Source: Candidatus Dormiibacterota bacterium (GTDB lineage Bacteria; Chloroflexota; Dormibacteria; CF-121). Taken from it: a stretch of 55,991 nucleotides of DNA. This document shows positions 10,241-43,968 of this stretch, piece after piece. Numbering within the stretch: the stretch's first letter is position 1; each line of letters starts with the position of its first letter. The stretch lies in the NCBI GenBank assembly GCA_035602295.1, contig DATNMN010000273.1, positions 1-55,991 of the forward strand, in the 5' to 3' direction. The notes under the pieces are model-generated. The model was not told the origin of the DNA and searched no databases. It was given only the letters and a program-made list of their open reading frames with translations. A program made the translations under genes and the position numbers.

Positions 10241-10390
10241 AATTACCTCCCTAGTACGTATTTAGGTGATACCGTTGATATCATATCAGTTGCCTGTCCG
10301 GCCGTCAATATTGCCCGGCGTAGATCACTCAGAGAAATCGGAGCCCGTGTGCATATGTGGAAGGGCTGTGTATAAGCGTCCGCGGGGTGC

Positions 10391-28814: not shown

Positions 28815-29435
28815 GTGATGACGGGATGGCGCCGTGCCGCGGCGGCAGGCCTGCTGGCGCTCACGGCGTGGTCGCTGGGAGGGCTCTGGGCCCTAGCTGG
28901 GCCGCCTGTGCCGACCATGAGCCAGCGATCGCTGCCATGGGCACGCCAGGCGCTTGGCAGCGATCGCGTGGATACGATCGGCTCGTCCGGCTGCGCCTTG
29001 ACCGCGGTCACCATGGTGGCGTCCGCCTACGGCTACCCGACAAACCCCGCGCAGCTGAATCAGTGGCTCACCGCTCACGGCGGCTACATCGAGAACGACC
29101 TGCTGCTCTGGCGCCAGGCAACTGCCGTCACACAGGGTTCGGTCCGCTGGCAGTGGCTCCACGTCCCCGGGATGGTGTCACAGCTGCGCACTGACGATCA
29201 GGACATCGAGGATCTGCCACCGCAGTCCCTGGTGGAGGCTCAGCTCGACGCGGGACGTCTCGTGGTCGCTGAGGTTCGACTCTACGGTGGCATGCACTTC
29301 GTCGTGATCACCGGCCACCGCGGCGACATCCTCTATATCAATGATCCGTGGTTCGGGGATCGGACCACCCTGCAAGCCCGCTACGGCGGTTACCGCCAAG
29401 CGGTGCACTCGGCGCAGGTCTACTACCGGAACTAA
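28815..29435 (+). CDS. secreted papain-fold cysteine peptidase-like protein (peptidase C39-like domain)
   Basis: Signal-like N-terminus. GSSGCALTAVTMVASAYGY carries the catalytic Cys context and GGMHFVVITGH..LYINDPW the His context. Confidence 0.6.
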   Translation: MMTGWRRAAAAGLLALTAWSLGGLWALAGPPVPTMSQRSLPWARQALGSDRVDTIGSSGCALTAVTMVASAYGYPTNPAQLNQWLTAHGGYIENDLLLWRQATAVTQGSVRWQWLHVPGMVSQLRTDDQDIEDLPPQSLVEAQLDAGRLVVAEVRLYGGMHFVVITGHRGDILYINDPWFGDRTTLQARYGGYRQAVHSAQVYYRN

Positions 29436-29447
29436 CGGCCGCGTCCG

Positions 29448-29939
29448 TCAGGCCGCGGCGGCGAGCTCGTCGTCGTACTCGGCCGGACCCCACTGACGAG
29501 TCCGCTGCGCGACGGCGGCACACAGGTTCTCGAAGGTGTCCTGCCGAAACAGGGAGCGGTTGAGTTTCAGCACCTGGCCGGCGGCCGCGATTTCGAGATG
29601 GCCGCCCTCGCGGGTAATGACCTGGTTCATCCCGTGGACCCGGTCCCAGGGGACCAGGCGCGGCTGACGATTGAACCAGGCATGCCCGACCGGCCGGAGC
29701 GCGATGCCCTCGCGGGTGATGGTCACCTCGATCCACTCGATGAAGAAGCTGTGAAAGAGGAGCCCGACGCTGAACGCAAGGCCACAGCCCATCGCGATCG
29801 CGAGCGCCGCGAAGGAGCTGCTGTGCGTCTGCGAGATCTCGATGACGGCCAGGACGAAGCCGAGCGCGCACGCCGTGATCGGCACGCCAGGCCAGAGGAT
29901 TACCAGCCGGTTCAGTGGGCTATCCGGCCGAAAGCTCAT
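29448..29939 (-). CDS. membrane protein, hypothetical (two TM segments + soluble PH-like C-terminus)
   Basis: Start moved to ATG 29939 (MSFRPDSPLN). The upstream part of track ORF 29448..30089 lies over a non-coding repeat tract. Confidence 0.5.
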   Translation of the reverse strand: MSFRPDSPLNRLVILWPGVPITACALGFVLAVIEISQTHSSSFAALAIAMGCGLAFSVGLLFHSFFIEWIEVTITREGIALRPVGHAWFNRQPRLVPWDRVHGMNQVITREGGHLEIAAAGQVLKLNRSLFRQDTFENLCAAVAQRTRQWGPAEYDDELAAAA

Positions 29940-30034
29940 ACGTGTTGCTAACGGTATCGGCGCAGATCGAAGCCAACATTTCGGCAACCGATTCGCCGCT
30001 GAGCTGTTGCGCTCGCGTAACGCGGGCCCGCCGG

Positions 30035-30134
30035 CCCACGCGAGCGGCGCTCGGGGCGTCGCCCCACGCGAGCGGCGCTTTAGTGCCAAACGAGCGTTTG
30101 AGACGTTAGTGCCAGGCGAGCGTTTGAGGCGAGT
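30035..30134. repeat. degenerate tandem repeat tract (units of 26-28 bp)
   Basis: CCCACGCGAGCGGCGCT occurs at 30035-30051 and 30063-30079. TTAGTGCCA(AA/GG)CGAGCGTTTGAG(A/G)CG occurs at 30080-30105 and 30106-30131. All units share CGAGCG. Confidence 0.8.
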
Positions 30135-30482
30135 TTAGACGTCTAGTTCTTTGACGTCGAGGTCGCGCAGCTCGGGTGGCGCCTGCAGGCCGTTATCGAC
30201 CAGGATGCGCAACAGCCGGAGGACGTAACGCGCGCCGTTTAGGTTGACGCCGTGCTGGCGCGTCAGCGTCTGGATCGCCTGGAGCTTCCGGATGTCCCGT
30301 TGCGAGAAGCGCCGACGGTTCGTCGACGTGCGCTTGGGGACCACCAGGCCAAGATGCTCGTACATCATCAGGGTTCGGGGGTGCGTCTGGAGGATCTCGG
30401 ACGCCACGCTGATGGTGTAGATGGGCTTGTCGAGGGAGAGACTCGTATCCGGCGGTGCCCGGCGCGTTACTCCTTTAGCCAA
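30135..30482 (-). CDS. MerR-family regulator, HspR-like (paralog 1)
   Basis: LDKPIYTISVASEILQTHPRTLMMYEHLGLVVPKRTSTNRRRFSQRDIRKLQAIQTLTRQHGVNLNGARYVLRLL resembles HspR (YTISVAAE..HPQTLR.Y.RLGLV.P.RT..G.RRYS.RDI..L..VQ.L....G.NLAG). TTG start lies inside the 3' end of the upstream RR gene. Confidence 0.85.
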   Translation of the reverse strand: MAKGVTRRAPPDTSLSLDKPIYTISVASEILQTHPRTLMMYEHLGLVVPKRTSTNRRRFSQRDIRKLQAIQTLTRQHGVNLNGARYVLRLLRILVDNGLQAPPELRDLDVKELDV

Positions 30483-30895
30483 TCCTCGATACCTTCCGAG
30501 AGGCTGGTCGGCGTGGTGCGGGCCTTGATGAGGTACTCATGCGCCCCGAGGCGCAGCCCTCGCGCGACCAGATCCTCTTCATCGTAGTTAGAGAGGATGA
30601 TAACCGGAATATCGCGGGTCTTCTCCTGCGCGCGCAATTTCCTCAAGACTTCCAGCCCGTCCATTTTCGGCAGGCGGATATCGAGAAAGATGATGTCGGG
30701 AGCGAGGTCGCCGGCCTTCTTGAGGCCCTCTTCACCGTCGAGGGCGGTGTTGACCCGGTAGCCGTCGAGTTCCAGCTTCAATCGGTACATCTCGAGCACC
30801 GATGGATCGTCTTCCACGAGGAGGACATCGACCAGGTCTTCGTCGGCCTGGGTTGCGCGGTTCGCGCCGGCGCTTCGCCGCGTCTTACTTTCCAT
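30467..30895 (-). CDS. single-domain (REC-only) response regulator
   Basis: Contains VLLVEDDP, IIFLDIRLPKMDG, VIILSN and EYLIKA. No output domain. 16-nt overlap with the downstream MerR gene. Confidence 0.88.
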   Translation of the reverse strand: MESKTRRSAGANRATQADEDLVDVLLVEDDPSVLEMYRLKLELDGYRVNTALDGEEGLKKAGDLAPDIIFLDIRLPKMDGLEVLRKLRAQEKTRDIPVIILSNYDEEDLVARGLRLGAHEYLIKARTTPTSLSEGIEDWLKE

Positions 30896-31010
30896 AACAC
30901 TCCTCTTGGCGCGAAAGAGTATAGACGAACGCCGTGAATCGCGCGGGCCTTATGGATAGCAAAACGGCGTAGTCACCTCGAGGCATACGCGGGTCCCTCC
31001 GAACGGCCCC

Positions 31011-31041
31011 AGAAAAGTTAAGGCCCTCCGAAGGGAGGGCC
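31011..31041 (-). terminator. candidate rho-independent terminator
   Basis: GGCCCTCC-gaag-GGAGGGCC (31022-31041). On the minus strand it is followed by TTAACTTTTCT. It lies about 190 nt downstream of the MerR paralog-2 stop. Confidence 0.45.
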
Positions 31042-31231
31042 CGAAGAGGGGGGCAAGAGAACTACCTGAAATTATAGGCAAGCCCTGGAGCCATGTCAAC
31101 ATGGACGCCATCAGAAAGTATCCTGCGGCGACTGTCGGCAAAGCTCTCGGCGCGCGCATAACAATGCGCGAAAACTGCGCAGGCCAAATCGCACGGTTAC
31201 AGGCGGTCGCCGCGCAAATGACGCGCTGTGT

Positions 31232-31579
31232 TCAGACGTCCAGTTGCGAGACGTCGATATCGCGGAGCTCAACTGGCGACGGCAACTGGTGCTCATGCAA
31301 CAGCTTGAGGAGTTTGAGGATGTAGCGGACGCCGGCCAGGTTGACCGAGTGCTGCCGGGTCAGCTTTTGAATGGTTTGAAGCTTCATGACGTCGCGCTGC
31401 GAGAAGCGGCGCCGGTTGGTCGAGGTCCGCTTCGGCACGACCAGCCCAAGGTGCTCGTACATCATCAGCGTCCGCGGATGGGTCTCCAGAATCTCAGACG
31501 CCACGCTGATCGTGTAAATCGGTTTGTCGAGGGAGATGTTCGTGTCGCGTCGGGTGTCACGCTTGACGGCGATAGCCAT
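31232..31579 (-). CDS. MerR-family regulator, HspR-like (paralog 2)
   Basis: Start set to ATG 31579 (MAIAVKRDTRRD), preceded by a GGAGGG RBS. The 47-aa stretch LDKPIYTISVASEIL.THPRTLMMYEHLGLVVPKRTSTNRRRFSQRD differs from paralog 1 at one position. Confidence 0.85.
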   Translation of the reverse strand: MAIAVKRDTRRDTNISLDKPIYTISVASEILETHPRTLMMYEHLGLVVPKRTSTNRRRFSQRDVMKLQTIQKLTRQHSVNLAGVRYILKLLKLLHEHQLPSPVELRDIDVSQLDV

Positions 31580-31755
31580 GCGGCCCTCCAAAAATTGTTT
31601 ACCTGTTCCCGATTCCCGATCCACGACCGTGACGCCTACCGCCTGAGATCGCGTCGAGCGAAGCGATGGTCAGTATAGGCGGCAACGTGAGGGGGCTCAA
31701 GGGAGGATTCGTAAATACATGTGAACTCAAATAAACCCCCAGCCCTGGCATCAAA

Positions 31756-31814
31756 TTGTAGCCAGACTCTTACTGGTGCGCTATAATACTTCGTAACAGG
31801 CGCGATATCGCGCC
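31756..31814 (+). promoter_or_regulatory. candidate csbD promoter (TTGTAG-20 nt-TATAAT) plus perfect 16-bp palindrome in the leader
   Basis: TTGTAG at 31756-31761, TATAAT at 31782-31787, GGCGCGATATCGCGCC at 31799-31814, then a GGAGG RBS and ATG 31837. Confidence 0.45.
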
Positions 31815-31836
31815 AAACCTTTACCGGAGGTGCCAC

Positions 31837-32025
31837 ATGGGCGAGTTGTTGGACAAAGTCGAAGGCGAGGCCAAGGATGCCGGCGGCAAGGTGACCGGTG
31901 ACAAGAAGATGGAGTGGGAAGGCAAAGGCCAGAAGGCGAAGGGCGATCTCGAAGGCGCCACCCGCAAGATGCGGGACGGTGAGCCACTCGAGGGCGAACC
32001 GACCGAAGGCAACAAGAACCTCTAG
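31837..32025 (+). CDS. csbD: CsbD-family general stress protein
   Basis: 62 aa. GELLDKVEGEAKDAGGKVTGDKKMEWEGKGQKAKGDLEG is typical of CsbD. Confidence 0.85.
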   Translation: MGELLDKVEGEAKDAGGKVTGDKKMEWEGKGQKAKGDLEGATRKMRDGEPLEGEPTEGNKNL

Positions 32026-32040
32026 TTCGGGAGAGCGCGG

Positions 32041-32074
32041 AGCCGGCCTGACATCAGGCCGGCTTTCCTATTTT
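32041..32074 (+). terminator. rho-independent terminator of csbD
   Basis: AGCCGGCCTG-acat-CAGGCCGGCT (10-bp stem) followed by TTTCCTATTTT. Confidence 0.75.
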
Positions 32075-32592
32075 GGCGTCGCGGGCGGCGAGGATTCGGC
32101 GTTGGCGACTTCGGCGGGGACGCCGGCTGCTGGCACGGCGGGCCGTCGACCCGCGTGGGTACGACCGCCCGTCGGGGTCGGCGTTGGAGCGCCTCCGCGG
32201 ACCCGGATGTGGCTTAGCGTCGACTCCCGGAGAATGAGGAAGAGGAGCAGGGCGACTGACCCCAGGAGAAAGTTCGTGCCAAGCCAGCTGTAGGCCAGGA
32301 AGAAACCCAGGACAAACCCGATCAGGGCCATCAGGAAGGCGGCAATCGTCCCGATGTGCATGAACTCGTCCTGCAGGTGGTGGCGCGGAAAGAGCTGGCG
32401 CAGCCAGTTCTCAAGCCCGACGCCGCTCGGGCCAGTCGAGCCAGCATGCGAGGAAGTGGACGCGGAGCCGGCTACGGGGTCGGCCTGGGACTTGCCGCAG
32501 AAGCGGCAAAAACGGGCATCCGCCTCGATCGGCCTGCCGCACTCGCGACAGAATACGGTTCCGGCTTTTGGAGTGGCTTCCGAAGGCGACAA
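32068..32592 (-). CDS. zinc-ribbon membrane protein, hypothetical
   Basis: CRECGRPIEADARFCRFCG at the N-terminus and two TM segments in the C-terminal half. Confidence 0.6.
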   Translation of the reverse strand: MSPSEATPKAGTVFCRECGRPIEADARFCRFCGKSQADPVAGSASTSSHAGSTGPSGVGLENWLRQLFPRHHLQDEFMHIGTIAAFLMALIGFVLGFFLAYSWLGTNFLLGSVALLLFLILRESTLSHIRVRGGAPTPTPTGGRTHAGRRPAVPAAGVPAEVANAESSPPATPK

Positions 32593-32908
32593 GGCGGCCC
32601 CATTATAGGGCCGCGATCAGTCGGATCCGCCCATTCACGACCGGCGTAACCATCTGCCCCAGGCTCCCGTTGGACGGTAGACGATGGCAATGCGTACTCG
32701 ACTCTCCCATGCGAATCGCACTTACGTTATACTAGCTCCATCAGCTTTTTCGCCATCCACAGGGTAGGATTTAGGGGCCTGAATTGATAAGTATCCGGCA
32801 CGCGACTCACCCAATAACTGCTAGCGGCCTCTCGTCGCTCGACGCTCGTCGGCGCCAGATCCGGCGGCTGCGCCGGTCACCTCTTCGCACCATCGTCAGC
32901 GGAGCAGG

Positions 32909-35170
32909 GTGGGGAGCCGTTATCCTCGTCTCTCTGTGGCTCCTCCTTTCAGGGATCTTCGGGTTTCTGAGCGCCTAAGCCTCGCCACGCGCCGACGGAG
33001 TCAGCGCAACGTCGAGCGCTGGCGCCGGCGTAGCCGTGCGGACTTTCGCCGGGTCCTGATCCTCGGCCTGCTGGTCGTCTTCGTGCTGCCCCTGCTCGGC
33101 ATCCCGGCGATCACGGCGCAGGCCGTGGGTACCCTGCCGGCCGTCAGCGGGCTGGCCTCCAACAAGATGGAGCAAGACACCCTGATCTACGACCGTCATG
33201 GCACATTGCTCGCGGACATCGGCAAAGCCGGTGACCATCGCATCGTCGTGCCGCTTAATTACATCTCGCCCTGGGTGGTGAAGGCGACCCTCGCCACCGA
33301 GGACCGCACGTTTTACTCGAACAGTGGCATCGACCTCGGCGGCATCGTTCGCGCCGCCATCGCGAACTATCAGCACCACGCGGTCAAGCAGGGTGGCAGC
33401 ACCATCAGTCAGCAGCTGGTGAAGCAGGTCTACATCGGTTCGAATGCCCCAGCGGACATCCAACGCAAGCTCAAAGAAGCCATCCTTGCCATCGAGCTGA
33501 ACCGTGAGTACAGCAAAAACCAGATCCTCGAGATGTACCTCAACACCATCTTCTATGGCAGTCAGACGTACGGCATCGAGGCAGCGGCCCGCAGCTACTT
33601 CCAGACCAACGCCCACGACCTTTCCCTGGCGCAGGCCGCCATGCTCGCCGGGCTGCCGCAGGCGCCGACGCAATACAACCCGGTGGTGAACCTGCAGTCC
33701 GCAAAGCAGCGGCAGGCGCAGGTGCTCGCCGCGATGGTGGGCGAGAAATACATCACCGCGGCGCAGGCCGAGGCGGCCTATGCCGTCAAGCTGCAGATCT
33801 CTCCACCAATCACCAAGTTCGAGGCGCCCTACTTCGTCGACTACGTCTTGAAGACGCTCGCCAAAGCCCCCTACAACATCACGTCTGACAATCGCAAGGG
33901 CTACCGGGTCTACACCAGCCTCGACCTGAACCTGCAACATCTCGCGGAGCAGACCGTCTATGACCAGGTGGCCCAGAAGGGCAACTTCTATAACTTCCAC
34001 GACGCCGCGCTGGTGAGCATGGACCCGAGGACCGGCGAGGTGCTAGCCATGGTTGGCGGCGTCGACTACAACCGTCCCGGCGGTCAGTTCAACTTCGCCT
34101 ACGACCAGCCGCGACCGCCGGGCTCGAGCTTCAAGATCTTCACCTACACCGCTGCCATCGAAAGCCGCAAGGTGAACATGGTCAGTCCGATCCTGGACGA
34201 GCCGCTGGTCTTTCCCATCGGCGGCGACCCGGCCGGTTTCGGCAAGTACATTCCACAAAACTACGATCGCCGCTTTCACGGCACCCTGCCGCTGAAGATG
34301 GCGATGGGCAACTCGATGAACATCCCGGCGCTGAAGACCGAGCTGCGCACCGGCATCCCGGCGGTAGTCGATATGGCGCACCGCATGGGCTTGACCTGCT
34401 TGGGTCCGCTCCCCTGCGTCGATCAGAGCCCGGACAACTACGGGATGAGCCTGACGCTGGGCGCGTACCCGGTGCGGCTCGCCGACATGGCGACGGCGGC
34501 CTCGACGTTGGCGACGCTCGGGGTCCGTCATCGCGAGGCGCCAATTCTCAACATCAAAGACGGCCTGGGTCGCGACGTCTTCACCTACGACGCGAAGAAG
34601 AATGAGTTCCGCGCCGTCGACGAGAACGTCGCTTTCATCATCGCCCAGATCATGTCGGACGACCGCAACCGCTGCCTGGAATTCGGCTGCCACGGCGACC
34701 TCACGCTGCCCGGCCGGACGGTCGCCGCGAAGACCGGCACCACCAACGACTTCAAGGACAACTGGACGATCGGCTTCACGCCGAGCCTGGCGACGGCGGT
34801 GTGGGTCGGCAACCCGGACAACAAGCCGCTCAGCCACAACTCGACGGGCATCGTCGGCGCTGCGCCCATCTGGCACAAGTTCATGATGCAAGCGCTTGCC
34901 GGGAAGCCCGACGAGTGGTACCCGGTGCCGGCCAGCGTTCACGCTTTGGGCGCGAATTACTTCTTGCCCGGTACTGAGAGCCTGCCGGCCACGCTCGCGC
35001 AGCCCTGGCCGCAGTGCAAGCTGCCGGCGAACTACAACCCCTACACCCTGACCTATTCGCAAATCACGGTCAACGGTGTCTACTGCATCATCAACCCGCC
35101 GCCACCACCACCCGCGCCGCCACCCACGCCGTCGCCCTCACCGACTCCCAACAACCAGGGAAACAACTAA
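32909..35170 (+). CDS. class A penicillin-binding protein (GT51 transglycosylase + transpeptidase)
   Basis: GT51 motifs EDRTFYSNSGID, GGSTISQQLVK and RKLKEAILAIELN. Transpeptidase motifs SSFK, a SxN region and KTGTT. Pro-rich tail. Start uncertain. Confidence 0.9.
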   Translation: MGSRYPRLSVAPPFRDLRVSERLSLATRRRSQRNVERWRRRSRADFRRVLILGLLVVFVLPLLGIPAITAQAVGTLPAVSGLASNKMEQDTLIYDRHGTLLADIGKAGDHRIVVPLNYISPWVVKATLATEDRTFYSNSGIDLGGIVRAAIANYQHHAVKQGGSTISQQLVKQVYIGSNAPADIQRKLKEAILAIELNREYSKNQILEMYLNTIFYGSQTYGIEAAARSYFQTNAHDLSLAQAAMLAGLPQAPTQYNPVVNLQSAKQRQAQVLAAMVGEKYITAAQAEAAYAVKLQISPPITKFEAPYFVDYVLKTLAKAPYNITSDNRKGYRVYTSLDLNLQHLAEQTVYDQVAQKGNFYNFHDAALVSMDPRTGEVLAMVGGVDYNRPGGQFNFAYDQPRPPGSSFKIFTYTAAIESRKVNMVSPILDEPLVFPIGGDPAGFGKYIPQNYDRRFHGTLPLKMAMGNSMNIPALKTELRTGIPAVVDMAHRMGLTCLGPLPCVDQSPDNYGMSLTLGAYPVRLADMATAASTLATLGVRHREAPILNIKDGLGRDVFTYDAKKNEFRAVDENVAFIIAQIMSDDRNRCLEFGCHGDLTLPGRTVAAKTGTTNDFKDNWTIGFTPSLATAVWVGNPDNKPLSHNSTGIVGAAPIWHKFMMQALAGKPDEWYPVPASVHALGANYFLPGTESLPATLAQPWPQCKLPANYNPYTLTYSQITVNGVYCIINPPPPPPAPPPTPSPSPTPNNQGNN

Positions 35171-35187
35171 AAGAACGCGGGTCTGAG

Positions 35188-35562
35188 CTAGGCGATCCCC
35201 GGCTGGTCGCTGGATGCCTTCTCGGTGCGGCCCTGCTCGCCATCCCCGAAGGACATCTTTGATGCCAGCCCGCCGGCCCGGTCGCGCAGCTCGATGCCGC
35301 GCTGCATCAGGTCGTCGCGCATCTCCTCGCCGGATTTGGGGGCGAGCAGCAGCGCCAGCCCGAAGCCGACCGCAACCCCGAGCAGGAGTCCCGTGACAAA
35401 GCGCTCTACGCCGGCATCGTCGTCCTGGGTGATCCGGGTCCGGCGCAAGGCCGACACGGCATCCGTCAGGCGGTCCTTCACCTCGAGGTCCTGAGCGGTT
35501 TTGGTGGCACGGTCGAGCAGCTCGCTCAACCGGTCGATCGTCTTTTCCACGGTCTGATCCAT
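35188..35562 (-). CDS. YtxH-domain stress protein
   Basis: GLLLGVAVGFGLALLLAPKSGEEMRDDL is the YtxH signature. Confidence 0.75.
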   Translation of the reverse strand: MDQTVEKTIDRLSELLDRATKTAQDLEVKDRLTDAVSALRRTRITQDDDAGVERFVTGLLLGVAVGFGLALLLAPKSGEEMRDDLMQRGIELRDRAGGLASKMSFGDGEQGRTEKASSDQPGIA

Positions 35563-35572
35563 CCTCGTCCTC

Positions 35573-35794
35573 CTACGGGCGTCTGGCCCTGCTTTCTGGT
35601 CCGCTGGCGGCTCGGCGCCGGGGTGTTGCCGCGGGGGTCACCGGCGCGCCGCCATCGCCGGCCATCATCGCCTGGGCCTGGCCCAGCAGTCGCGAGAGCC
35701 GGCGCCGCATGGCCACGCCCGATTCAGGCGCGTACAACAGCCCCAGGATCGCCCCGGCGATCGCGCCGTGCCGAAGACCTCGTAGATATCGCAT
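35573..35794 (-). CDS. YtxH-like small protein
   Basis: GAIAGAILGLLYAPESGVAMRRRL. Start set to ATG 35794 (MRYLRGL). Track ORF is 35573..35899. Confidence 0.5.
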   Translation of the reverse strand: MRYLRGLRHGAIAGAILGLLYAPESGVAMRRRLSRLLGQAQAMMAGDGGAPVTPAATPRRRAASGPESRARRP

Positions 35795-35993
35795 ACAAAA
35801 CGCGCGCCTCCACGGCAGCACGGTGCTTCCGGGGGGCCGCGACGCCATCGTATCACTTGCCTTTGGGCCCGCTGCACGTTCGGTTGCGTACGTCGCCAAT
35901 TCAGGAAATTGGGTGAACTTGTTTTATACTAACCACCGATGGGAAGGGGGGAAAGATGACAGGCATGATGTCTGCTTTGCGACCTGCCGTCCT

Positions 35994-36101
35994 AATGAGC
36001 CCGCTCCGGCGTGGAAAAGCCGGCGGTTCAATGAGCCCGCTCCGGCCTGGAAAAGCGGGCGGTTCAATGAGCCCGCTCCGGCGTGGAAAAGCGGGCGGTT
36101 C
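35994..36101 (+). repeat. 3 x 36-bp perfect-period tandem repeat, each unit a hairpin; abuts the RBS of the REC gene
   Basis: Units are at 35994-36029, 36030-36065 and 36066-36101 and read AATGAGCCCGCTCCGGC(G/C)TGGAAAAGC(C/G)GGCGGTTC. Stem is GCCCGCT/AGCGGGC around loop CCGGYNTGGAAA. The array is followed directly by AAGGAGGGG-ac-ATG (36113). Confidence 0.9.
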
Positions 36102-36112
36102 AAGGAGGGGAC

Positions 36113-36502
36113 ATGAGTGAAGTCGTCGACGAGGACGTAAACGTCCTATTCATCGAAGATGATCCGGCGGTGGCTGAGATGTACAAGCTCAAGCTGGAGC
36201 TGGATGGCTACCGCGTCACCGTCGCGAAGTCCGGCGAGGAGGGCCTCGACCACGCCAAGAACCAGGTGCCGGACATCGTGTTCCTCGACATTCGGCTCCC
36301 GAAGATGGACGGCTTCGCCGTTCTCGAGAACCTTCGTTCCGATAGCGTTACCAAGAACATCCCGGTCATCATCCTGTCCAACTACGGCGAGAAGGAATTA
36401 GTCGATCGCGGACTGAAGCTCGGCGCCCTCGACTACCTGATCAAGTCCGAGACCACACCCGCCAGCCTGAGCCGCGGCGTCCAGGATTGGGTCAAGGAAT
36501 AG
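36113..36502 (+). CDS. single-domain (REC-only) response regulator (paralog of 30467..30895)
   Basis: Contains VLFIEDDP, IVFLDIRLPKMDG, VIILSN and DYLIKS. Start ATG 36113 with an AAGGAGG RBS. Track ORF starts at 36083. Confidence 0.88.
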   Translation: MSEVVDEDVNVLFIEDDPAVAEMYKLKLELDGYRVTVAKSGEEGLDHAKNQVPDIVFLDIRLPKMDGFAVLENLRSDSVTKNIPVIILSNYGEKELVDRGLKLGALDYLIKSETTPASLSRGVQDWVKE

Positions 36503-36505
36503 ACC

Positions 36506-36850
36506 TTGGTCCCCAATCGCGATCCGCGGATCGGTGGAGCCTTCGACCTCGACAAGCCGCTCTACACGATCAGCGTGGCCTCCGAGATCCTGGAGACCCA
36601 CCCGCGAACCCTGATGATGTACGAGGATCTCGGATTGATCGAGCCCTATCGCACCGCGACCAACCGGCGCCGCTACTCGCAGCGCAACGTGCGCAAGCTG
36701 CAAGTAATCCAGCAGCTGACCCGGGAGAAAGGGGTCAACCTCGCGGGCGTCAAGTACATCCTCATGCTCCTGGAGTCATTGAAGCGCGGCGGCGTCAAGC
36801 CGCCCGACGACCTGAGTCAGGTCTATGACCTGTATGAGGAGATTATTTAG
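36506..36850 (+). CDS. MerR-family regulator, HspR-like (paralog 3)
   Basis: Contains LDKPLYTISVASEILETHPRTLMMYEDLGLIEPYRTATNRRRYSQRNVRKLQVIQQLTREKGVNLAGVKYILMLL. TTG start 4 nt after the RR stop. Confidence 0.85.
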   Translation: MVPNRDPRIGGAFDLDKPLYTISVASEILETHPRTLMMYEDLGLIEPYRTATNRRRYSQRNVRKLQVIQQLTREKGVNLAGVKYILMLLESLKRGGVKPPDDLSQVYDLYEEII

Positions 36851-36857
36851 TTCGTCG

Positions 36858-38825
36858 TTAGCTGGCCGCGATCGGTGGCCCTGGCTCGCTGTCGTGCACC
36901 GAACCGCTCGAGCCATCGTCCCAGTCATGGGCCTGTGCGGCGGCGATCCTGGGCGCGACGGCTAACTCCGCAACCTCGGGCAACGTCACGTTGACGAGCG
37001 GCGCGGCGGCCTCATCGAGCAACAACCGGTCGAGCTCCTCGCCGTCGATCGTCTCCACCAGTTGCAGGTGATCCGCGATCCGGATGAGCGTGGCACGTCG
37101 TGACTCGCAGATCTCATACGCCTGGCGATAGGCCGCATCGGTGAGGGCCTTGACCTCGGCATCGACGTCGGCCGCGGTCAACTCGGAGAAGAAGAGACTG
37201 TCACCATCGCCTTTGCGGTGCAGGGTCACGAGTCCGAGCCGTTCGCTCATGCCGAACTCACACACCATCTGACGCGCGACGTTGGTCGCGTACTCGATGT
37301 CCTGCTTGGCGCCGGTCGTGACGTCCCCGAAGATGATCTCTTCAGCGGCTCGACCGCCCATCGCGGCCGCCATGCGCGCGATCAACTCCGACTTCGACGT
37401 CAGATAGCGATCCTTCAACGGCAACTGGATGGTGACACCGAGCGCCTGCCCCCGCGAGACCACCGACACTTTGTGCACCGGATCGCTCTTGGCAATGGAC
37501 TTCATCACGAGGGCGTGTCCGACCTCGTGGTAGGCAATGATCGCCTTCTCTTCCGGCGTGATCATCCGGCTGCGCTTTTCCGGGCCTGCCATCACGCGCA
37601 GCCCGGCCTCTTCCAGCTCCTGCTTGCCGATCGCCTGCTTCTTGTTGCGCGCCGCCAGGATCGCTGCCTCGTTGAGGAGATTGGCCAGGTCGGCCCCGGT
37701 GAATCCCGGCGTCTGGCGCGCTACGATGTCGAGGTTGATGTTGTCGGCGAGCGGCTTCTGCGCCGAATACAGGGACAGGATGGCGCGCCGGCCGTTGAGG
37801 TCCGGGGCGTCGATCGCGACGCGGCGGTCGAACCGGCCGGAGCGGAGCAGGGCCGGGTCGAGGACATCGGGCCGGTTGGTGGCCGCGATCACGACCACCG
37901 CGCAGTCGGTGTTGAACCCGTCCATCTCCACCAGCAGCTGGTTCAGCGTCTGCTCGCGCTCTTCATTGGTTCGGATTTGGGCGCCGCCCCGCTTGCGGCC
38001 GAGGGCGTCGATCTCGTCGAGGAAGACGATGCAGGGCGCGTTCTTTTTGGCATGTCGGAACAGGTCGCGCACCCGCGCCGCGCCAACACCGACGAACATC
38101 TCGACGAAGTCGGAGCCGCTGAGAGAGAAGTACGGGACTTTTGCCTCGCCCGCCACCGCGCGCGACAGCAGCGTCTTGCCAGTGCCGGGCGGACCGACCA
38201 GCAGGATCCCGCGCGGCATCCGCGCACCGAGCTGACCGAAACTCCCGGGTGCCTTGAGGAATTCGACGACTTCTTCCAGCTCGCGCTTGGCCTCGTCAAC
38301 GCCGACCACCTGGTCGAACGTGACCTGGTCGGTGTCACCGAGCTTGGCTTCGGCCAGATGCTTGGTCATCGCGCCCATCGGATTTCCCAGCAGGTTCGAA
38401 CGGCGCAACATAATGAACAGCAGGGCCAGCAGGACGAGCAGGCCCAGCAGGTTCGGCAGCACCGACGCGAAGGAGGCCTCGTCCGTCGACTGGACGGCGA
38501 CCTTGACGTTGTGACTGCGCAGGTACTGCTCGGTGGTGCCCATCGACGACTCTTTTTCGATGGTCCACGACTGCCGGCCGGCCGTATCGGTCAGCAGGAT
38601 GCGCTGGCCGCTGATGGTCGCAGCCACGATGTCACCGTGATCGACGCGGTCGAGCACGTCGCTGATCGGCACGCTGGGCTGGTTCCAGACCGAATTCGTT
38701 CCCGAGTGGCCGAGGAACCATAGCGCACCAAGGAGAAGCACCCCGACGAGCGCGAGCGCGGGCACCAGGACCCGCTTTTGGCGCAGGCCCGCTGGGATGG
38801 ACAGACCGCGGAAGAAAGTTTTCAT
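36858..38825 (-). CDS. ftsH: ATP-dependent zinc metalloprotease FtsH
   Basis: Walker A GPPGTGKT, Walker [13 protein letters not shown] region [19 protein letters not shown], and HEVGH zinc site. Two N-terminal TM segments. Confidence 0.95.
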
Positions 38826-38845
38826 TTGTTCCTCAACCCCTCTTC

Positions 38846-40024
38846 TTAATAGGCGACTGGCTGGTCAGGTAGGGCGATCAATGCCTTGGCCGCGATCCCC
38901 CCTCCGCGGTATCGCTGCCAGAACGGGTAAGCCGTGATCGCTTGCTGCTCGTCCGCGGTGACGCCATTGTCGGCATTCGCCAGCCGGTAATAGGACCAGC
39001 TGATGCCGCCCTGGGCGCGGGTCTCATTCATCGAGGTGATGATCTCGTCGGCGGGCGGTGCCCCCGGCGTGCCGTACTCGGGTGCGGCGTCGTAGGTTTG
39101 CGCGGTGATCGTCAGGGGACGCTTGAACGGGTTGACGCCGGGATCGCGGAACTGTTGAAAGACCTGGTCGACGTAAGCCCGCGTCCCGTCGGCGCCGCTG
39201 TACTGCGGGAGCCCGGTGGCGCGCCAGTAGACCATCGGCGCAAAGACCTGACAGTAACGCGACATGGTGGCGTACGCGTAGCCCGGGTGGTCATAGGGCG
39301 TTGGCAACGTGCTGGCGATCAGCAGGTAGCGGTCGCCCAGTCCATTCATGCCGGTGATGCCGCCGCGGATGCCCGACAGGTACTGGCCGACGTTCGGGTC
39401 CGAGGTGCTGTTGCCCTCGATGGTGAGCGCGAGGCCGTCGAGCCGTTGGCCTTGTTCCTCGAACTGCGCGGCCGCCAGCGCATCGGCGGTGTCGCCGGTC
39501 GGGTCGTCGAGCATCGGCTCGATCCAACCGATGATGCTCAGCCCGTGCGCATGGGCGATTGGGAGCAGGTCCTGCAGCGCCGGCGCGCCGTAGAAGTGGT
39601 GCTTGGAATCGGCGATTCGGATGTAGAGGTGGCTGAGGTCAGCCCGCACGGCCGCATCGACGATCGCCGCCGCGCGGTCCGCATCCGGATCGTTCCAATC
39701 GCCGTCGAAGATCATGAGCCAGGACCCCTTGCCGCGGATGCCGTCGAGCGGTGAGCGTGGGGTCTGCGCAAACCCACGTGCGCTCACCGGCAGCTTGAGG
39801 ATCGCGCCGACCGGGCGCCCGAAGCTGCTGATTACGCGGGCCGCCTGCGCTTGATCCTGGGCGCGGGCCTCCAGATAGGCGCGCAGCCCAAAGGGAGGTG
39901 TGAGAAGTGCAAAGAGCATCACTCCCAGCACGACCCGCCCTCCAAACGCCGTGAGTTGCCGTAAGATGCGCGACATGCTCGAATGTTCGGCACGAGAGCC
40001 GTTCGGGCGTGACAGTACCGACAA
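38846..40024 (-). CDS. hypothetical exported protein, possibly TIM-barrel glycoside-hydrolase-like
   Basis: N-terminal TM/signal segment. No motif I can name with certainty. Operonic with ftsH (20-nt gap). Start may be ATG 39976. Confidence 0.5.
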   Translation of the reverse strand: MSVLSRPNGSRAEHSSMSRILRQLTAFGGRVVLGVMLFALLTPPFGLRAYLEARAQDQAQAARVISSFGRPVGAILKLPVSARGFAQTPRSPLDGIRGKGSWLMIFDGDWNDPDADRAAAIVDAAVRADLSHLYIRIADSKHHFYGAPALQDLLPIAHAHGLSIIGWIEPMLDDPTGDTADALAAAQFEEQGQRLDGLALTIEGNSTSDPNVGQYLSGIRGGITGMNGLGDRYLLIASTLPTPYDHPGYAYATMSRYCQVFAPMVYWRATGLPQYSGADGTRAYVDQVFQQFRDPGVNPFKRPLTITAQTYDAAPEYGTPGAPPADEIITSMNETRAQGGISWSYYRLANADNGVTADEQQAITAYPFWQRYRGGGIAAKALIALPDQPVAY

Positions 40025-40223
40025 GCCCGCACCCGTTCAAGCGGGAGTTCCCACGGCTAAGGTGATACGCGACCGTACAGCCAATGGGTGACCTCTTGTG
40101 CTCCGTCACGCTGCGCACAGTGACGCCACAAAGCGCACAAACGAGGCTTCCCTTCGCCGTTTATCACAAATTTTGATATGTTGGATATAATGGTTTGCAG
40201 TCTCGGGTCCTGGAGGGCAGCAC

Positions 40224-40526
40224 GTGACAATGCCGCATAAGTCCAGCGAAGTCTCCGATATGTTCGACATCGAGCCGCGAACACTCTTCGTCTACGAGAG
40301 TGAGAACCTGATCGCGCCTGAACGAACGCCGACCCAGCGTCGCCGCTACTCGCGCCGGGACATCGAGCGGATCCGGCTGATTCGCGAGCTCACCACGGTG
40401 CACGGCATCAATCTCGCCGGGGTCAAGGTGATCTTCTCCCTGATGGAGGCGGCCGTCCAGAGCCGGCTCCAGATCCCGGAGACGGAGTTTCCGGAGCTCG
40501 CCGGCGCCCGCCATCTCTGGGCCTGA
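40224..40526 (+). CDS. MerR-family regulator, HspR-like (paralog 4, divergent)
   Basis: Contains DIEPRTLFVYESENLIAPERTPTQRRRYSRRDIERIRLIRELTTVHGINLAGVKVIFSL. TATAAT-containing AT-rich region upstream (about 40170-40195). Confidence 0.75.
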   Translation: MTMPHKSSEVSDMFDIEPRTLFVYESENLIAPERTPTQRRRYSRRDIERIRLIRELTTVHGINLAGVKVIFSLMEAAVQSRLQIPETEFPELAGARHLWA

Positions 40527-40567
40527 GCTCACTCCGCGAGCGTCTCCTCGGCGTTCCCGCCTCGCGC

Positions 40568-41314
40568 ATCCTGCTTGGCCTCGACTTCGACGGGACCCTC
40601 GCGCCCATCGTGCCGGACCCGGACCAAGCGGCTCCCGATCCGAACGCGGTCACGCTCCTCAGCGAGCTCAGCCAGTGCCTGCAACGGGTCGTCATCATCA
40701 GCGGCCGCGACACGGATTTCCTTGTCAGCCGATTACCGCTGCCTCACGCCCTCTTTATCGGTAACCACGGGCTAGAGGAACGACACGATGGCGCCTCGCA
40801 GGTCGTTGTTGAGGCGCAGCCATTCCTGGAGCGGCTACGGCGTGCAGCCGATGCGGTGGCGGCGCTTCCGCAGGCCCGCGGGGCCGGCATCACCATCGAG
40901 CGCAAGCGGGCCGCAATCAGCGTCCATTTTCGGCAAGCCACGGATCCCTCCGCGTCCGGAGCGGCGCTTCAGCCGGCCATGCAACAGATCGCGCGTCACG
41001 AACAATTGCAGCTCCAACCCGGACGACTGGTCTGGGAGCTCCGACCGCCGATCGAGATCGACAAAGGCGCGGTTCTGCGCCGGCTGGCCGCCGCCATGCA
41101 GCCGGCGGCCATCGTCTATGCCGGTGACGATCGGACCGATGCGAAGGCCTTTCAAGCGCTCAAGGGCATACCCGCCGTCAGAACGGTGGCCGTGGGCGTG
41201 CGGTCAGAAGAGGTGCCGGGCGACATGTTCATCGATTGCGACCTCACGGTGGATGGCGTCCCGGGCGTCACCAATCTCCTCAGCCAGCTGCTCGACGTCT
41301 GCGCAAACGCCTAA
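40568..41314 (+). CDS. otsB: trehalose-6-phosphate phosphatase (HAD family); start codon unresolved
   Basis: HAD motif I LDFDGTLAPI is encoded at 40580-40609, which is upstream of the first canonical start (GTG 40610) used by the ORF track. ISGRD, then GDDRTD (HAD motif IV). The frame is open from 40322. Confidence 0.8.
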   Translation: MLLGLDFDGTLAPIVPDPDQAAPDPNAVTLLSELSQCLQRVVIISGRDTDFLVSRLPLPHALFIGNHGLEERHDGASQVVVEAQPFLERLRRAADAVAALPQARGAGITIERKRAAISVHFRQATDPSASGAALQPAMQQIARHEQLQLQPGRLVWELRPPIEIDKGAVLRRLAAAMQPAAIVYAGDDRTDAKAFQALKGIPAVRTVAVGVRSEEVPGDMFIDCDLTVDGVPGVTNLLSQLLDVCANA

Positions 41315-42873
41315 CGGATTACCTCACGTTCGAGCGGCAGGGGTTCGTCGAGCCCGACCTCGGGCCGGCGAGCGGCGGACGGCTCCACCAGGTCACGGAT
41401 GTCCTGCAACTGCGCGGAGATCCAACGGGCCACATCGTTCTGCTGGACGACCGCACGCATCTTCTCGGCGCGCGCGTGACGTTCGACCGGGTCCATCAGC
41501 AGGGCGCGATGCAGCGCCTGCGCCGTGGCGTCGACATCGAAGGGATTGATGGTGATCGCCCACTCACCGAGCTCTTCGTGGGTCCCAGCATTCTCCGATA
41601 GAACGAGTGCGCCGCCCCGTTGGTTGACCGTGATCCCTTCCTTGGCAACCAGGTTCATGCCGTCATAGATGGGATTCACCAGCAGCACGTCGAACTGCTT
41701 GTAACCCGCCACCGCCCGATTCATGTCGTCGCGCAGCTCGAGACGAATCGGCTGCCAGGAATCCGACCCGAGTCTTTGATTGATCGCCCTGGCCAGCTGG
41801 ACCACCTGCCGGGCATACTCGCGATACTCGGGCACATTCTGGCGTGTCTTTTGCAGCAACGCCCAAAATACGACGCGGCCCCGCCATTCCGGATGCGCGT
41901 GCAGCAGCCGCTCATAGCCGAAGAAGCCGCGGATGATGTTCTTCGAGAGGTCCATGCGGTCGACGCGGTAGACCAGGTGCTCCGGTCGCCACCGCAAGAT
42001 CTCGCGCTCCGCCCGCTCCACGGCCGGACTCGCCGCGGTACGTTCGAACTCCCGGACATCGATCGAGATCGGGTAGCGCCGGACCCAAATGGTGCGGCCG
42101 CGATAGAAGGCGGTTTGCTGGCGAAAGTCGACAGGCAACCCCATGTTCTCCTCGCAGGTCAGCAAGAAGTTGCGCACATCCGAGTGGGTCTGCAGACCGA
42201 CGATGTCGGCCGCGAGCAAGCCGTCCATGATCTCCTCGCGCATGTAGCTCGGCAGGACTTTCCAGTACTGCGGAGTCGGCCACGGAATATGGACGAAGTG
42301 CTGGATGACCGCATCCGGAAGCTCGCGACGGACGAGTCGGGGAACCAGGTAGAGGTGGTAATCGTGCGAGAGGACCAGCGGGCGCTTGCGGCCACGGCGT
42401 GCCTCACGGATGACCTGTTGGGCGAAGAGCTGGTTGACCCGACGGTACCCCTCGTTCCAGGCGAGGTGGGTACTGTCGTCGAGCACGGGGGCCTCGGCCA
42501 GGTTCCAGAGGTAGTGTTGAACAAACCAGAGCAGCGGGTTGGCAATCGTGTTGTAGTAAAGGTCATAGGCGAGGCGTGGGGCATTGACCCAGCTCACCTG
42601 GAAGCGTGAGCCGTCGGTGGTTTCGACCATCATCGGTTCGCCGCCGTCGTCGAGTTCGAGTTCACCTTCGAGCCCGTCCCGAATGGAGGCGACCCACACC
42701 GCTCCCGTCGCCAGCGCCAGCCCAGAGAGGCCGGTCACCAGCCCGCCGGCGCCGCGAACGAAATGCGTCCGATCGGGCGGATCGTGTGCGACGTCCACCG
42801 GCGGACGGTTGGCCGCCACGATCGGGTGGAAGTCCTTGAGCAGCCGCCGGGTATATTGCTCGATCGCCAGCAT
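41311..42873 (-). CDS. otsA: alpha,alpha-trehalose-phosphate synthase (GT20)
   Basis: GT20-like throughout: VANRPPV.., ANPLLWFVQHYLW, HDYHLYLVP, LVNPIYDGMNLVAKE. Confidence 0.9.
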   Translation of the reverse strand: MLAIEQYTRRLLKDFHPIVAANRPPVDVAHDPPDRTHFVRGAGGLVTGLSGLALATGAVWVASIRDGLEGELELDDGGEPMMVETTDGSRFQVSWVNAPRLAYDLYYNTIANPLLWFVQHYLWNLAEAPVLDDSTHLAWNEGYRRVNQLFAQQVIREARRGRKRPLVLSHDYHLYLVPRLVRRELPDAVIQHFVHIPWPTPQYWKVLPSYMREEIMDGLLAADIVGLQTHSDVRNFLLTCEENMGLPVDFRQQTAFYRGRTIWVRRYPISIDVREFERTAASPAVERAEREILRWRPEHLVYRVDRMDLSKNIIRGFFGYERLLHAHPEWRGRVVFWALLQKTRQNVPEYREYARQVVQLARAINQRLGSDSWQPIRLELRDDMNRAVAGYKQFDVLLVNPIYDGMNLVAKEGITVNQRGGALVLSENAGTHEELGEWAITINPFDVDATAQALHRALLMDPVERHARAEKMRAVVQQNDVARWISAQLQDIRDLVEPSAARRPEVGLDEPLPLEREVIR

Positions 42874-43016
42874 GGCCAGCTTCTAACTCTACGCGGGGTT
42901 CCCGGGGCCAGTTCTCAGCTTCCGGCCAAGGTTGCGCCCCAGACCAATAGGTGATATCGTGGCTATAAAATTACTGCCATGCGGGGATGGTCGGGTCCGT
43001 CTTTAGGGGTAGGGAC

Positions 43017-43364
43017 ATGGGAAAGCGGAAGCGAATGTCAGCAATCGCCCCCGGGCGGGCGGTTTTCACACCCAGTATCGCGAGCGAGATCCTGAATCTC
43101 CATCCGCGCACCTTGATGATCTACGAGAGCGAGAGCCTCATCAAGCCGCAGCGGACGGCGACCAACCGCCGCCGCTACTCTGAGGACGATATCCGGAGAG
43201 TCCGGGTGATCCAGTTCCTGACCCGACAGAAGGGCGTGAACCTGGCGGGGGTCAAATACGTCCTCCGCTTGCTGCAGACGCTGGCCGACCAAGGCCTCGA
43301 TCTCAACCAGGTCCCCGAGCTCGACTCGCTGCAGGAAGTCTCCGGAGACGGCCTGATCGCCTGA
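43017..43364 (+). CDS. MerR-family regulator, HspR-like (paralog 5)
   Basis: Contains FTPSIASEILNLHPRTLMIYESESLIKPQRTATNRRRYSEDDIRRVRVIQFLTRQKGVNLAGVKYVLRLL. ATG 43017. Divergent from otsA. Confidence 0.85.
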   Translation: MGKRKRMSAIAPGRAVFTPSIASEILNLHPRTLMIYESESLIKPQRTATNRRRYSEDDIRRVRVIQFLTRQKGVNLAGVKYVLRLLQTLADQGLDLNQVPELDSLQEVSGDGLIA

Positions 43365-43369
43365 GCATA

Positions 43370-43395
43370 GCCGCCCCCGGTGTGGAAAGGGCGGC
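43370..43395 (+). repeat. solitary copy of the CCGGYGTGGAAA-loop hairpin element
   Basis: GCCGCCC-CCGGTGTGGAAA-GGGCGGC, 6 nt after the MerR paralog-5 stop. It has the same 7-bp stem / 12-nt loop architecture as the 36-bp repeats at 35994-36101, with a different but still complementary stem. Confidence 0.8.
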
Positions 43396-43518
43396 GCGAA
43401 CGTGCTGAACTTGCGCGAAAGTGCTTGACAGCCATTGCCGACTATGTAACAGTGTGCATATCAATTTTCATGCGTCGGTGAATTGAGGGTAATCGGGGTT
43501 AGTGAAGGGAGCGATTGA

Positions 43519-43830
43519 ATGCTGAGCGACGCAATCGAGGAGATCCATCGGGAGTTCGAGGCGGCGGCCGACCGGCGAAACCAGGAGCTGAAGCGGCGCG
43601 CCGATGTCCGCCGCGCTGACGACTTTCTGCTCTCGGTCGAGGACATCATCGAGAATCGACGGGGTGCCGTCCCGGCACCGCTGATGGACGAGATCACGCA
43701 GTTCGTGCGCCCGCTAAACCGGAAGCTGCTGCGCGCCCTCAACCGCAACGTCACACGTGACCCGGTGCGGGTTCTGGACGTCCTTTTCGATGTCCAGCAA
43801 CTCCTCCTGCCCCGGCTAATGGTGGCGTAA
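43519..43830 (+). CDS. hypothetical helical protein
   Basis: 103-aa ORF with a GAAGGGAG RBS. TTGACA at 43425-43430 upstream. No recognisable motif. Confidence 0.45.
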   Translation: MLSDAIEEIHREFEAAADRRNQELKRRADVRRADDFLLSVEDIIENRRGAVPAPLMDEITQFVRPLNRKLLRALNRNVTRDPVRVLDVLFDVQQLLLPRLMVA

Positions 43831-43968
43831 TCTAGACGCGGGGGGGATCCAGCCGGCAAGAAAACCGTAAGGCACGGCGCTCAATAAGCCGGACAGCCGT
43901 TGCAGTTGAATGCGGCATGTGCCTGAAATAGCCTGTGCGGCCGGTCGGAGTACCCTGCTGAGGATCCC

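Follow-up and report, generated by a model that had tools for sequence, protein, structure and literature searches.

The window analysed here is the whole of contig DATNMN010000273.1, a stretch of 55,991 nt from the Candidatus Dormiibacterota assembly GCA_035602295.1 (Chloroflexota; Dormibacteria), a 2.77-Mb metagenome-assembled genome (MAG) that is 76% complete. Some 13 kb of it holds five paralogous regulators of the MerR family, named P1 to P5, and two stand-alone receivers, REC1 and REC3, interleaved with trehalose, envelope, and general-stress genes. The five open reading frames had been picked out in a preliminary description of the DNA, and the list of open reading frames bears them out: P1 (30135-30482, minus strand, 115 aa, with a TTG start), P2 (31232-31579, minus strand, 115 aa), P3 (36506-36850, plus strand, 114 aa), P4 (40224-40526, plus strand, 100 aa), and P5 (43017-43364, plus strand, 115 aa), the start of the last at 43017 being retained as ATG, GTG, or TTG in relatives. 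All five match the Pfam family MerR_1 at 57-62 bits (cut-off 21.6) and so belong to the MerR family (PF13411/PF00376). We suggest that they probably form an undescribed local stress-control circuit, and the general picture that we favor, with a probability of roughly 0.6, is that of a conserved stress-control island of one Dormibacterota family, built on minimal GlnR/HspR-like regulators.

The regulators and their neighbors are arranged largely as divergent pairs. P2 faces a gene for a CsbD-like general-stress protein (31837-32025, plus strand); REC3 and P3 face two YtxH-like genes (35188-35562 and 35573-35899, minus strand); P4 faces an operon, on the minus strand, that encodes a 392-aa protein without a Pfam family (38846-40024) and FtsH (36858-38825; 710 bits, cut-off 600); and P5 faces a trehalose-6-phosphate synthase gene, otsA (41311-42873, minus strand). 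Downstream of P4 lies the gene for OtsB, a trehalose-6-phosphate phosphatase (40610-41314, plus strand; 108 bits, cut-off 68), and a class A penicillin-binding protein (PBP) with Transgly and Transpeptidase domains is encoded at 32909-35170 on the plus strand. The labels given earlier to these neighbors hold for FtsH, OtsB, the class A PBP, and YtxH1 (52 bits, Pfam gathering score 37.5), and are weaker for the remaining three, which fall under their cut-offs: csbD reaches 34.7 bits (gathering score 40) and ytxH2 31 bits (37.5), while OtsA is best called a GT20 OtsA-like synthase because it scores 326 bits against a TIGR02400 cut-off of 565. The true start of ytxH2 may sit inside the open reading frame, since most relatives match only from about residue 25-35 on.

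The two receivers were not part of the preliminary description, and their coupling to two of the paralogs is an addition to its finding. REC1 (30467-30895, minus strand, 142 aa) matches PF00072 at 91.4 bits, and the start of P1 overlaps its 3' end by 16 nt. REC3 (36113-36502, plus strand) matches the same family at 90.7 bits, has its true start at the ATG at 36113, after AAGGAGGGGAC, and is followed by P3 at a distance of 4 nt. The two are 66% identical to each other, and both have the acidic pocket, phospho-acceptor Asp, Ser/Thr, and Lys that characterize PF00072 receivers; in REC1 the corresponding motifs are the acidic pair LLVEDD, the phospho-acceptor context FLDIRLP, ILSN, and YLIK. No HisKA kinase is encoded on the 56-kb contig, the 25 HisKA matches of the genome all lying on other contigs. 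Judging from this gene layout, P1 and P3 are translationally coupled to orphan receivers.

P1 to P5 are the sole strong HspR-like matches in the MAG. Between three and eight HspR-like matches per genome are found throughout the genus (24/24 other genus genomes), whereas the 201 genomes of a phylum sample mostly have one or two each, and 4-6 only in the window's own family. The 13-kb island has one gene order in 11/11 genomes examined, drawn from two genera of a single Dormibacteria family; this set comprises 9/9 genus genomes with the region on one contig and 2/2 sister-genus genomes. The order and orientation of 19 genes are kept across both genera, the exceptions being otsB and csbD, the latter undetected by tblastn in two of the syntenic genomes. 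As the paralogs are the only strong HspR-like matches of the genome, and as the island is syntenic in every genome of both sets, their clustering is not a matter of chance. Across the genus, regulators and receivers are 85-99% identical, and csbD, otsB, and ytxH2 57-92%; by this measure, the regulators and receivers are under purifying selection.

A related arrangement extends beyond the family. In other Dormibacteria families, one receiver stands between two MerR paralogs, tightly coupled to the downstream one, at no fewer than 24 loci, mostly in the order otsA(-otsB)-MerR-REC-MerR-...-PBP; in another class-level group, a MerR gene is divergent from REC-MerR-otsB, and otsA is convergent. The REC-MerR overlap or 4-nt gap is retained class-wide. 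Thirteen class-level loci have a single MerR gene beside the PBP gene and no receiver, and no receiver was found near the HspR-like genes in three loci sampled outside the class. This comparison of loci indicates that the triad is old within the class and that the state with five regulators and two receivers is specific to the family: an older MerR-receiver-MerR triad beside otsA/otsB and a class A PBP has given rise to the five regulators and two receivers seen here. The recurrence of the triad beside these genes across the class supports the trehalose and envelope linkage, and the association with trehalose, envelope, and general-stress genes that had been proposed from the single window is thus a stable one, seen in the synteny of two genera and in the class-level triads.

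By sequence, the paralogs fall close to HspR and outside it. Relative to P1, the identity is 73% for P2, 57% for P3, 38% for P4, and 49% for P5, with 26 columns invariant across all five. P1 and P2 differ, as had been noted, at one of 47 positions in the core LDKPIYTISVASEIL(Q/E)THPRTLMMYEHLGLVVPKRTSTNRRRFSQRD, the sole difference being Q/E, and the helix-turn-helix sequences of P1, P2, and P3 are identical. An N-terminal extension, LDKPxYT, is conserved in P1, P2, P3, and P5 and absent from P4. The NCBIfam model of HspR (NF047375) is the top model for every one of them, at 87.8, 92.1, 92.1, 70.2, and 82.2 bits for P1 to P5, respectively, but none reaches its equivalog cut-off of 105 bits; matches above this cut-off occur in 54/201 phylum genomes and in none of the Dormibacteria genomes searched. 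In a profile search of 1.84 billion representatives, just 29 clusters reached E<=1e-30, and beyond these the matches formed a continuum.

In a tree of 150 rows and 111 alignment columns with SH-aLRT support values, all five paralogs lie within a 70-row clade, of which five sampled members score 83-100 bits against the HspR model. Its sister is a 60-row clade (SH-aLRT 98), four sampled members of which score 108-128 bits, and we take the members of this clade to be bona fide HspR on account of these scores. P1 and P2 fall in a 26-row subclade (SH-aLRT 99), with P3 as its sister and P5 close by; a long, separate branch is that of P4, the most divergent of the paralogs. By score and by position in the tree, then, the five are HspR-like and not HspR in the strict sense, and belong to a sister subfamily of bona fide HspR. 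The preliminary description had proposed an expansion of HspR itself. What stands of this is the expansion, specific to the lineage, of a MerR subfamily related to HspR, with 4-6 copies against 1-2; the strict assignment does not survive scores of 70-92 bits, and the phylogeny places the paralogs nearest to the HspR clade, as sister to the sequences that pass the cut-off and not among them. Separately, relatives of the paralogs (P0162, P0227) include MerR domains fused to three BON domains, and to the Lon N-terminal substrate-binding domain; BON is an osmotic-stress-associated domain.

The predicted fold points in a further direction. The nearest sequences in the PDB are those of GlnR (55 bits) and TnrA (33 bits), and no HspR structure was matched. 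An AlphaFold2 model of P3 (mean pLDDT 90.4) has helices at residues 22-29, 33-41, 59-74, 79-95, and 101-111, in a winged helix-turn-helix without a long coiled coil, so that the C-terminal coiled-coil dimerization helix of canonical MerR proteins is missing from the model. Foldseek placed the model closest to GlnR bound to DNA (4r4e_B; rmsd 1.3 A over 76 columns, 42% identity), followed by 7tea and TnrA (4r22), whereas canonical MerR proteins superpose on it at rmsd 5-7 A. TnrA and GlnR are an offshoot of the MerR family without a coiled coil, in which 11-20 extra N-terminal residues form a dimerization helix, and they are weak dimers that form on DNA and bind partner proteins through their C-terminal tails (PMC4335299). 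In the P3 model, the N-terminal extension has a pLDDT of 50-83, and no helix is predicted there. A C-terminal tail motif, (L)xD(I/V)DVxx(L/V), is conserved class-wide in both regulators of the triad. P1 to P5 are thus predicted to be minimal MerR-type winged-helix proteins without a coiled coil, similar to GlnR/TnrA and with a short conserved C-terminal tail, for which a role as sensor would be plausible.

Promoters and candidate operators were read from alignments of the intergenic regions that took in both genera. The P2 promoter (31672-31700, minus strand) has a -35 element TTGAGC (31700-31695), a 17-nt spacer, and a -10 element TATACT (31677-31672), with both hexamers invariant in the genus, and the csbD promoter on the plus strand reads TAGCCA-N17-TATAAT, with its -10 at 31782-31787. 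Of the non-coding sequence in the P2/csbD region, the best conserved is a block between these two promoters, GGATTCGTAAATACATGTGAACTCA (31705-31729), an imperfect dyad that is an exact GTTCA-N11-TGAAC in one sister-genus genome (L118) and a similar form (ATGAAC) in another (L119). Relative to the inferred starts, the center of the dyad falls at about -51.5 for P2 and at about -78 for csbD, and we regard the dyad as a candidate operator of the P1/P2/P3 group. A 20-bp motif, ATTC-N10-GTGAACT, is shared by the P2/csbD region and the ytxH/REC3 region, where it stands just upstream of the REC3-P3 -10; these are its sole intergenic occurrences in the genome, the motif itself having been derived post hoc.

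The P4 and P5 promoters have a different element in common, TGATA-N7-TATAA(T/A), which overlaps the -10. In the P4 promoter region (40162-40191, plus strand), the copy TGATA-N7-TATAAT (40174-40191) is overlapped by an additional TATCA-N7-TGATA (40162-40178), which lies over TTATCA-N19-TATAAT; in the P5 promoter, the copy reads TGATA-N7-TATAAA (42952-42969, plus strand), and its sister-genus counterpart, TGATA-N7-TATCA, is perfectly palindromic over 17 bp and matches a TnrA box in geometry. The pattern TGA[TC]A-N7-TAT[AC]A[TA] occurs at six loci in 2.77 Mb, two of them being the P4 and P5 promoters. The other four comprise sites before the genes of a 51-aa membrane protein, a glutaredoxin-like protein, and rpiA, together with one elsewhere in the window, a TGATA-N7-TATCA palindrome at 10267-10284 on the plus strand (AGGTGATACCGTTGATATCAT) that has no convincing gene downstream.

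Several candidate elements were set aside. The minus-strand TTGAG motifs that had been proposed as half-sites turn out to be the -35 box of the P2 promoter (31695-31700) and a part of the conserved dyad upstream of it. The TTTGAG copies at 30097 and 30123 sit inside a tandem-repeat insertion of about 75 nt that is present in just two of the 11 aligned genomes, and for that reason are not a conserved operator; within this insertion, a tandem 26-nt direct repeat (…AGTGCCA(A/G)(A/G)CGAGCGTTTGAG…) at about 30080-30133, between P1 and the downstream gene of a membrane protein, includes the TTTGAG copies. Hairpin units of 36 bp belong to a repeat dispersed over the genome in at least 26 copies on many contigs, and so are not specific to the MerR genes. 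Three such units stand in tandem upstream of REC3 (35994-36101), an array that is missing from most genus genomes, and a hairpin follows P5 (43370-43395); the loop of the repeat is CCGG(C/T)(C/G)TGGAAA, and its stems vary yet stay complementary.

Between P2 and REC1, the minus strand may also encode a small RNA of about 55 nt (31010-31064) with its own promoter, TTGACA (31099-31094), N17, TATAAT (31076-31071). The candidate has an invariant C-rich 5' part, UUGCCCCCCUCUUC, followed by an intrinsic terminator hairpin. It is single-copy in the genome and is found in 48 loci beyond the window's own, in which the -35, the -10, and the transcript are conserved while the spacer and the hairpin loop vary. 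No Rfam family matches anywhere in 29000-45000, the small RNA included. The seed of the RNA shows complementarity to two sites, the conserved ribosome-binding site of ftsH (AGAGGGG) and a G-rich element within the leader of REC3-P3, and its targets are uncertain because C-rich seeds pair with many Shine-Dalgarno sites. This leader has a G-rich block, (A)GGGGGGAAAGGTGACAG at 35945-35975 on the plus strand, that is conserved in both genera.

From these elements, we propose that each paralog would bind the dyad in its own divergent promoter region and would thereby regulate both itself and the divergent neighbor. As the best operator candidates we regard the GTTCA-N11-TGAAC-type dyad at about -51.5 of the P2 promoter and, covering the -10 boxes of P4 and P5, the TGATA-N7-TAT(C/A)A dyad, through which repression would be exerted; P1, P2, and P3 would share binding sites because their helix-turn-helix sequences are identical. 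As the proteins have no ligand domain, their activity would be set by protein partners, which might act on the tail or on a weak dimer in the manner in which glutamine synthetase acts on GlnR and TnrA. In the case of P1 and P3, the partner could be the phosphorylated receiver, in which case either pair would function as a split response regulator that takes its input from a kinase encoded elsewhere. That the receiver, once phosphorylated, acts as a switch on its coupled MerR protein by way of the weak dimer or the C-terminal tail is a step that we put forward only tentatively. Similarly speculative is the fuller scheme, in which the REC1 and REC3 pairs, the three stand-alone paralogs, and the C-rich small RNA would make up a hierarchical circuit for trehalose, FtsH, envelope, and CsbD/YtxH protection during drying and rewetting.

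A number of observations weigh against this interpretation. No tblastn match to otsB was obtained between P4 and otsA in 4/9 genus genomes, and the ytxH/REC3 site of the 20-bp motif is not retained in the sister genus. The candidate operators are post hoc, few in number, and include -10 hexamers and AT-rich promoter DNA; no 5-N7-5 palindrome is common to the class-level loci, which have GC-rich chance matches only, and alignments upstream of the class-level otsA, MerR_a, and REC genes have a conserved TATACT -10 and no common dyad. No fusion of a receiver to a MerR protein was seen among 150 family representatives. P2, which is without receiver coupling, has the same tail as the receiver-coupled copies, and the tail is therefore no specific marker of receiver partnership. 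Finally, the deep splits of the tree have moderate support (SH-aLRT 80-94 on 111 columns).

The alternative that best withstands the evidence is that these are real regulators that came to lie among stress genes by an accident of tandem duplication, with targets elsewhere and receivers that work independently of them. Control of the neighbors by the paralogs is after all deduced rather than observed, otsB is dispensable beside P4, and promoters bearing the motif are found at other places too (C147, C148, C243, and window position 10267). An accident of this kind would not lead us to expect gene order and divergent pairing to be kept in 11/11 genomes despite strongly diverging neighbors, nor the adjacency to otsA/otsB and the PBP gene to recur class-wide in a different arrangement, nor the REC-MerR overlap or 4-nt gap to be found throughout the class, and we consider it unlikely.

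A second alternative holds that the stand-alone paralogs act mainly as mixed dimers or multimers, with the dose of paralogs tuning a shared regulon and with the receivers uninvolved, and that P4, which has no N-terminal arm, may act like BldC. This idea draws on the identical helix-turn-helix of P1, P2, and P3, on the weakness of GlnR/TnrA-type dimers that form on DNA (PMC4335299), and on a weak match to BldC (24.8 bits) that P4 alone shows, BldC being a protein that binds direct repeats as multimers (PMC5859096). It is nevertheless purely inferential, and the tight and conserved coupling to the receivers argues that these matter; we think it improbable.

HspR is the heat-shock repressor of Streptomyces, Mycobacterium, Helicobacter, and Deinococcus, and the paralogs resemble it in their best profile, in their small size and MerR-type winged helix with no domain for ligand binding, and in their association with stress genes. 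They could accordingly be plain duplicated HspR orthologs, that is, repressors titrated by DnaK at HAIR-like sites of chaperone genes, and close relatives are indeed labeled "heat shock protein HspR" in IMG. What makes this very improbable, beyond the five scores under the equivalog cut-off and the position of the paralogs outside the clade that passes it, is the organization of chaperone control. HAIR (CTTGAGT-N7-ACTCAAG) is matched nowhere in the window at <=3 mismatches, nor, at the same tolerance, in those dnaK and hrcA loci that were inspected, and the matches in the genome as a whole are all imperfect, with 2-3 mismatches; the earlier remarks that no full HAIR is present by eye and that the operators would differ from the canonical one agree with this result, while the half-sites suggested along with them do not hold. 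No linkage was found to dnaK-grpE-dnaJ, clpB, or cbpA, the neighbors being csbD, ytxH, ftsH, otsA/otsB, and the PBP gene, and in four genus genomes dnaK is on contigs other than that of the island. HrcA is encoded in the genome, and CIRCE stands upstream of groES (a perfect match), a groEL gene, and hrcA (contigs C231:3564, C32:10590, and C235:4359), which places classical chaperone control elsewhere, with HrcA and CIRCE. HspR further differs in being present as one copy where here there are five, two of them coupled to receivers. The dnaK gene was not found in this 76%-complete MAG; the hrcA contig ends about 300 nt past the gene, which may explain its absence.

Control of nitrogen genes by GlnR/TnrA-type regulators under glutamine synthetase, for which the nearest solved structures and PDB sequences and the TnrA-box 5-N7-5 geometry of the candidate operators might speak, is very unlikely given that the NCBIfam TnrA model yields a score of only about 25 bits (cut-off 140), that the TnrA/GlnR box TGTNAN7TNACA (PMC4335299) is found neither in the island nor before four glnA-type genes (5 perfect boxes genome-wide), and that the conserved neighbors are otsA/otsB, PBP, csbD, ytxH, and ftsH with no nitrogen gene adjacent.

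The stress-control island that we favor can be set beside several known systems. GlnR and TnrA of Bacillus and other Firmicutes (4r4e, 7tea, and 4r22) share with the paralogs the missing coiled coil, the extra N-terminal residues, a short C-terminal tail, which in GlnR/TnrA is the partner-binding sensor (PMC4335299), and, in the candidate operators, the 17-bp 5-N7-5 geometry. They differ in their link to nitrogen genes and glutamine synthetase; moreover, the N-terminal helix is not predicted by AlphaFold2 here, and the partner that we propose is a phosphorylated receiver and not an enzyme. BluR (YcgE) with BluF in E. coli offers a precedent for a MerR-like repressor that is set by binding a separately encoded signaling protein and that controls small stress proteins (PMC3509220), but BluR is a full-length MerR protein with a coiled coil, its partner is a BLUF-EAL photoreceptor, and only the MerR fold is in common. 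BldC of Streptomyces is likewise minimal and MerR-like, without a coiled coil or effector domain, and the truncated P4 matches it weakly; BldC, however, is a protein of 68 residues that controls development and binds direct repeats in a head-to-tail fashion (PMC5859096). In classical response regulators, a phosphorylated receiver controls a DNA-binding module, as proposed here, whereas the island would have separate, translationally coupled polypeptides, a GlnR/HspR-like MerR protein as output, and no kinase nearby.

Neither the coupling of HspR/GlnR-like regulators to receivers nor any MerR regulator of Dormibacterota turned up in the searchable literature. The Dormibacterota, abundant in soil and uncultured, are known for persisting where soils are dry and poor in nutrients. 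The island suggests that they skip the HspR/HAIR scheme and employ an expanded set of minimal GlnR/HspR-like regulators at the genes for trehalose, FtsH, the PBP, and CsbD/YtxH. If the pairs are split response regulators, they would be a new output type for two-component signaling, and the paralogs would be a third case of a MerR protein without a coiled coil under the control of a protein partner, after glutamine synthetase with GlnR/TnrA and DnaK with HspR. The parts of the island are all small and lend themselves to testing in vitro or in another host, with no need to grow the bacterium itself.

Two further genes lie within or beside the island. A zinc-ribbon membrane protein is encoded at 32068-32592 on the minus strand, divergent from the class A PBP gene. 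Past P5, a conserved 103-aa protein without a Pfam family (43519-43830, plus strand) has a conserved promoter block of its own, CTTGACA…GACTATGTAACAGT (43430-43470, plus strand), which is invariant in the genus; its gene adjoins otsA in several class-level loci, and a similar …ACATAACAGT… word is present upstream of it there.

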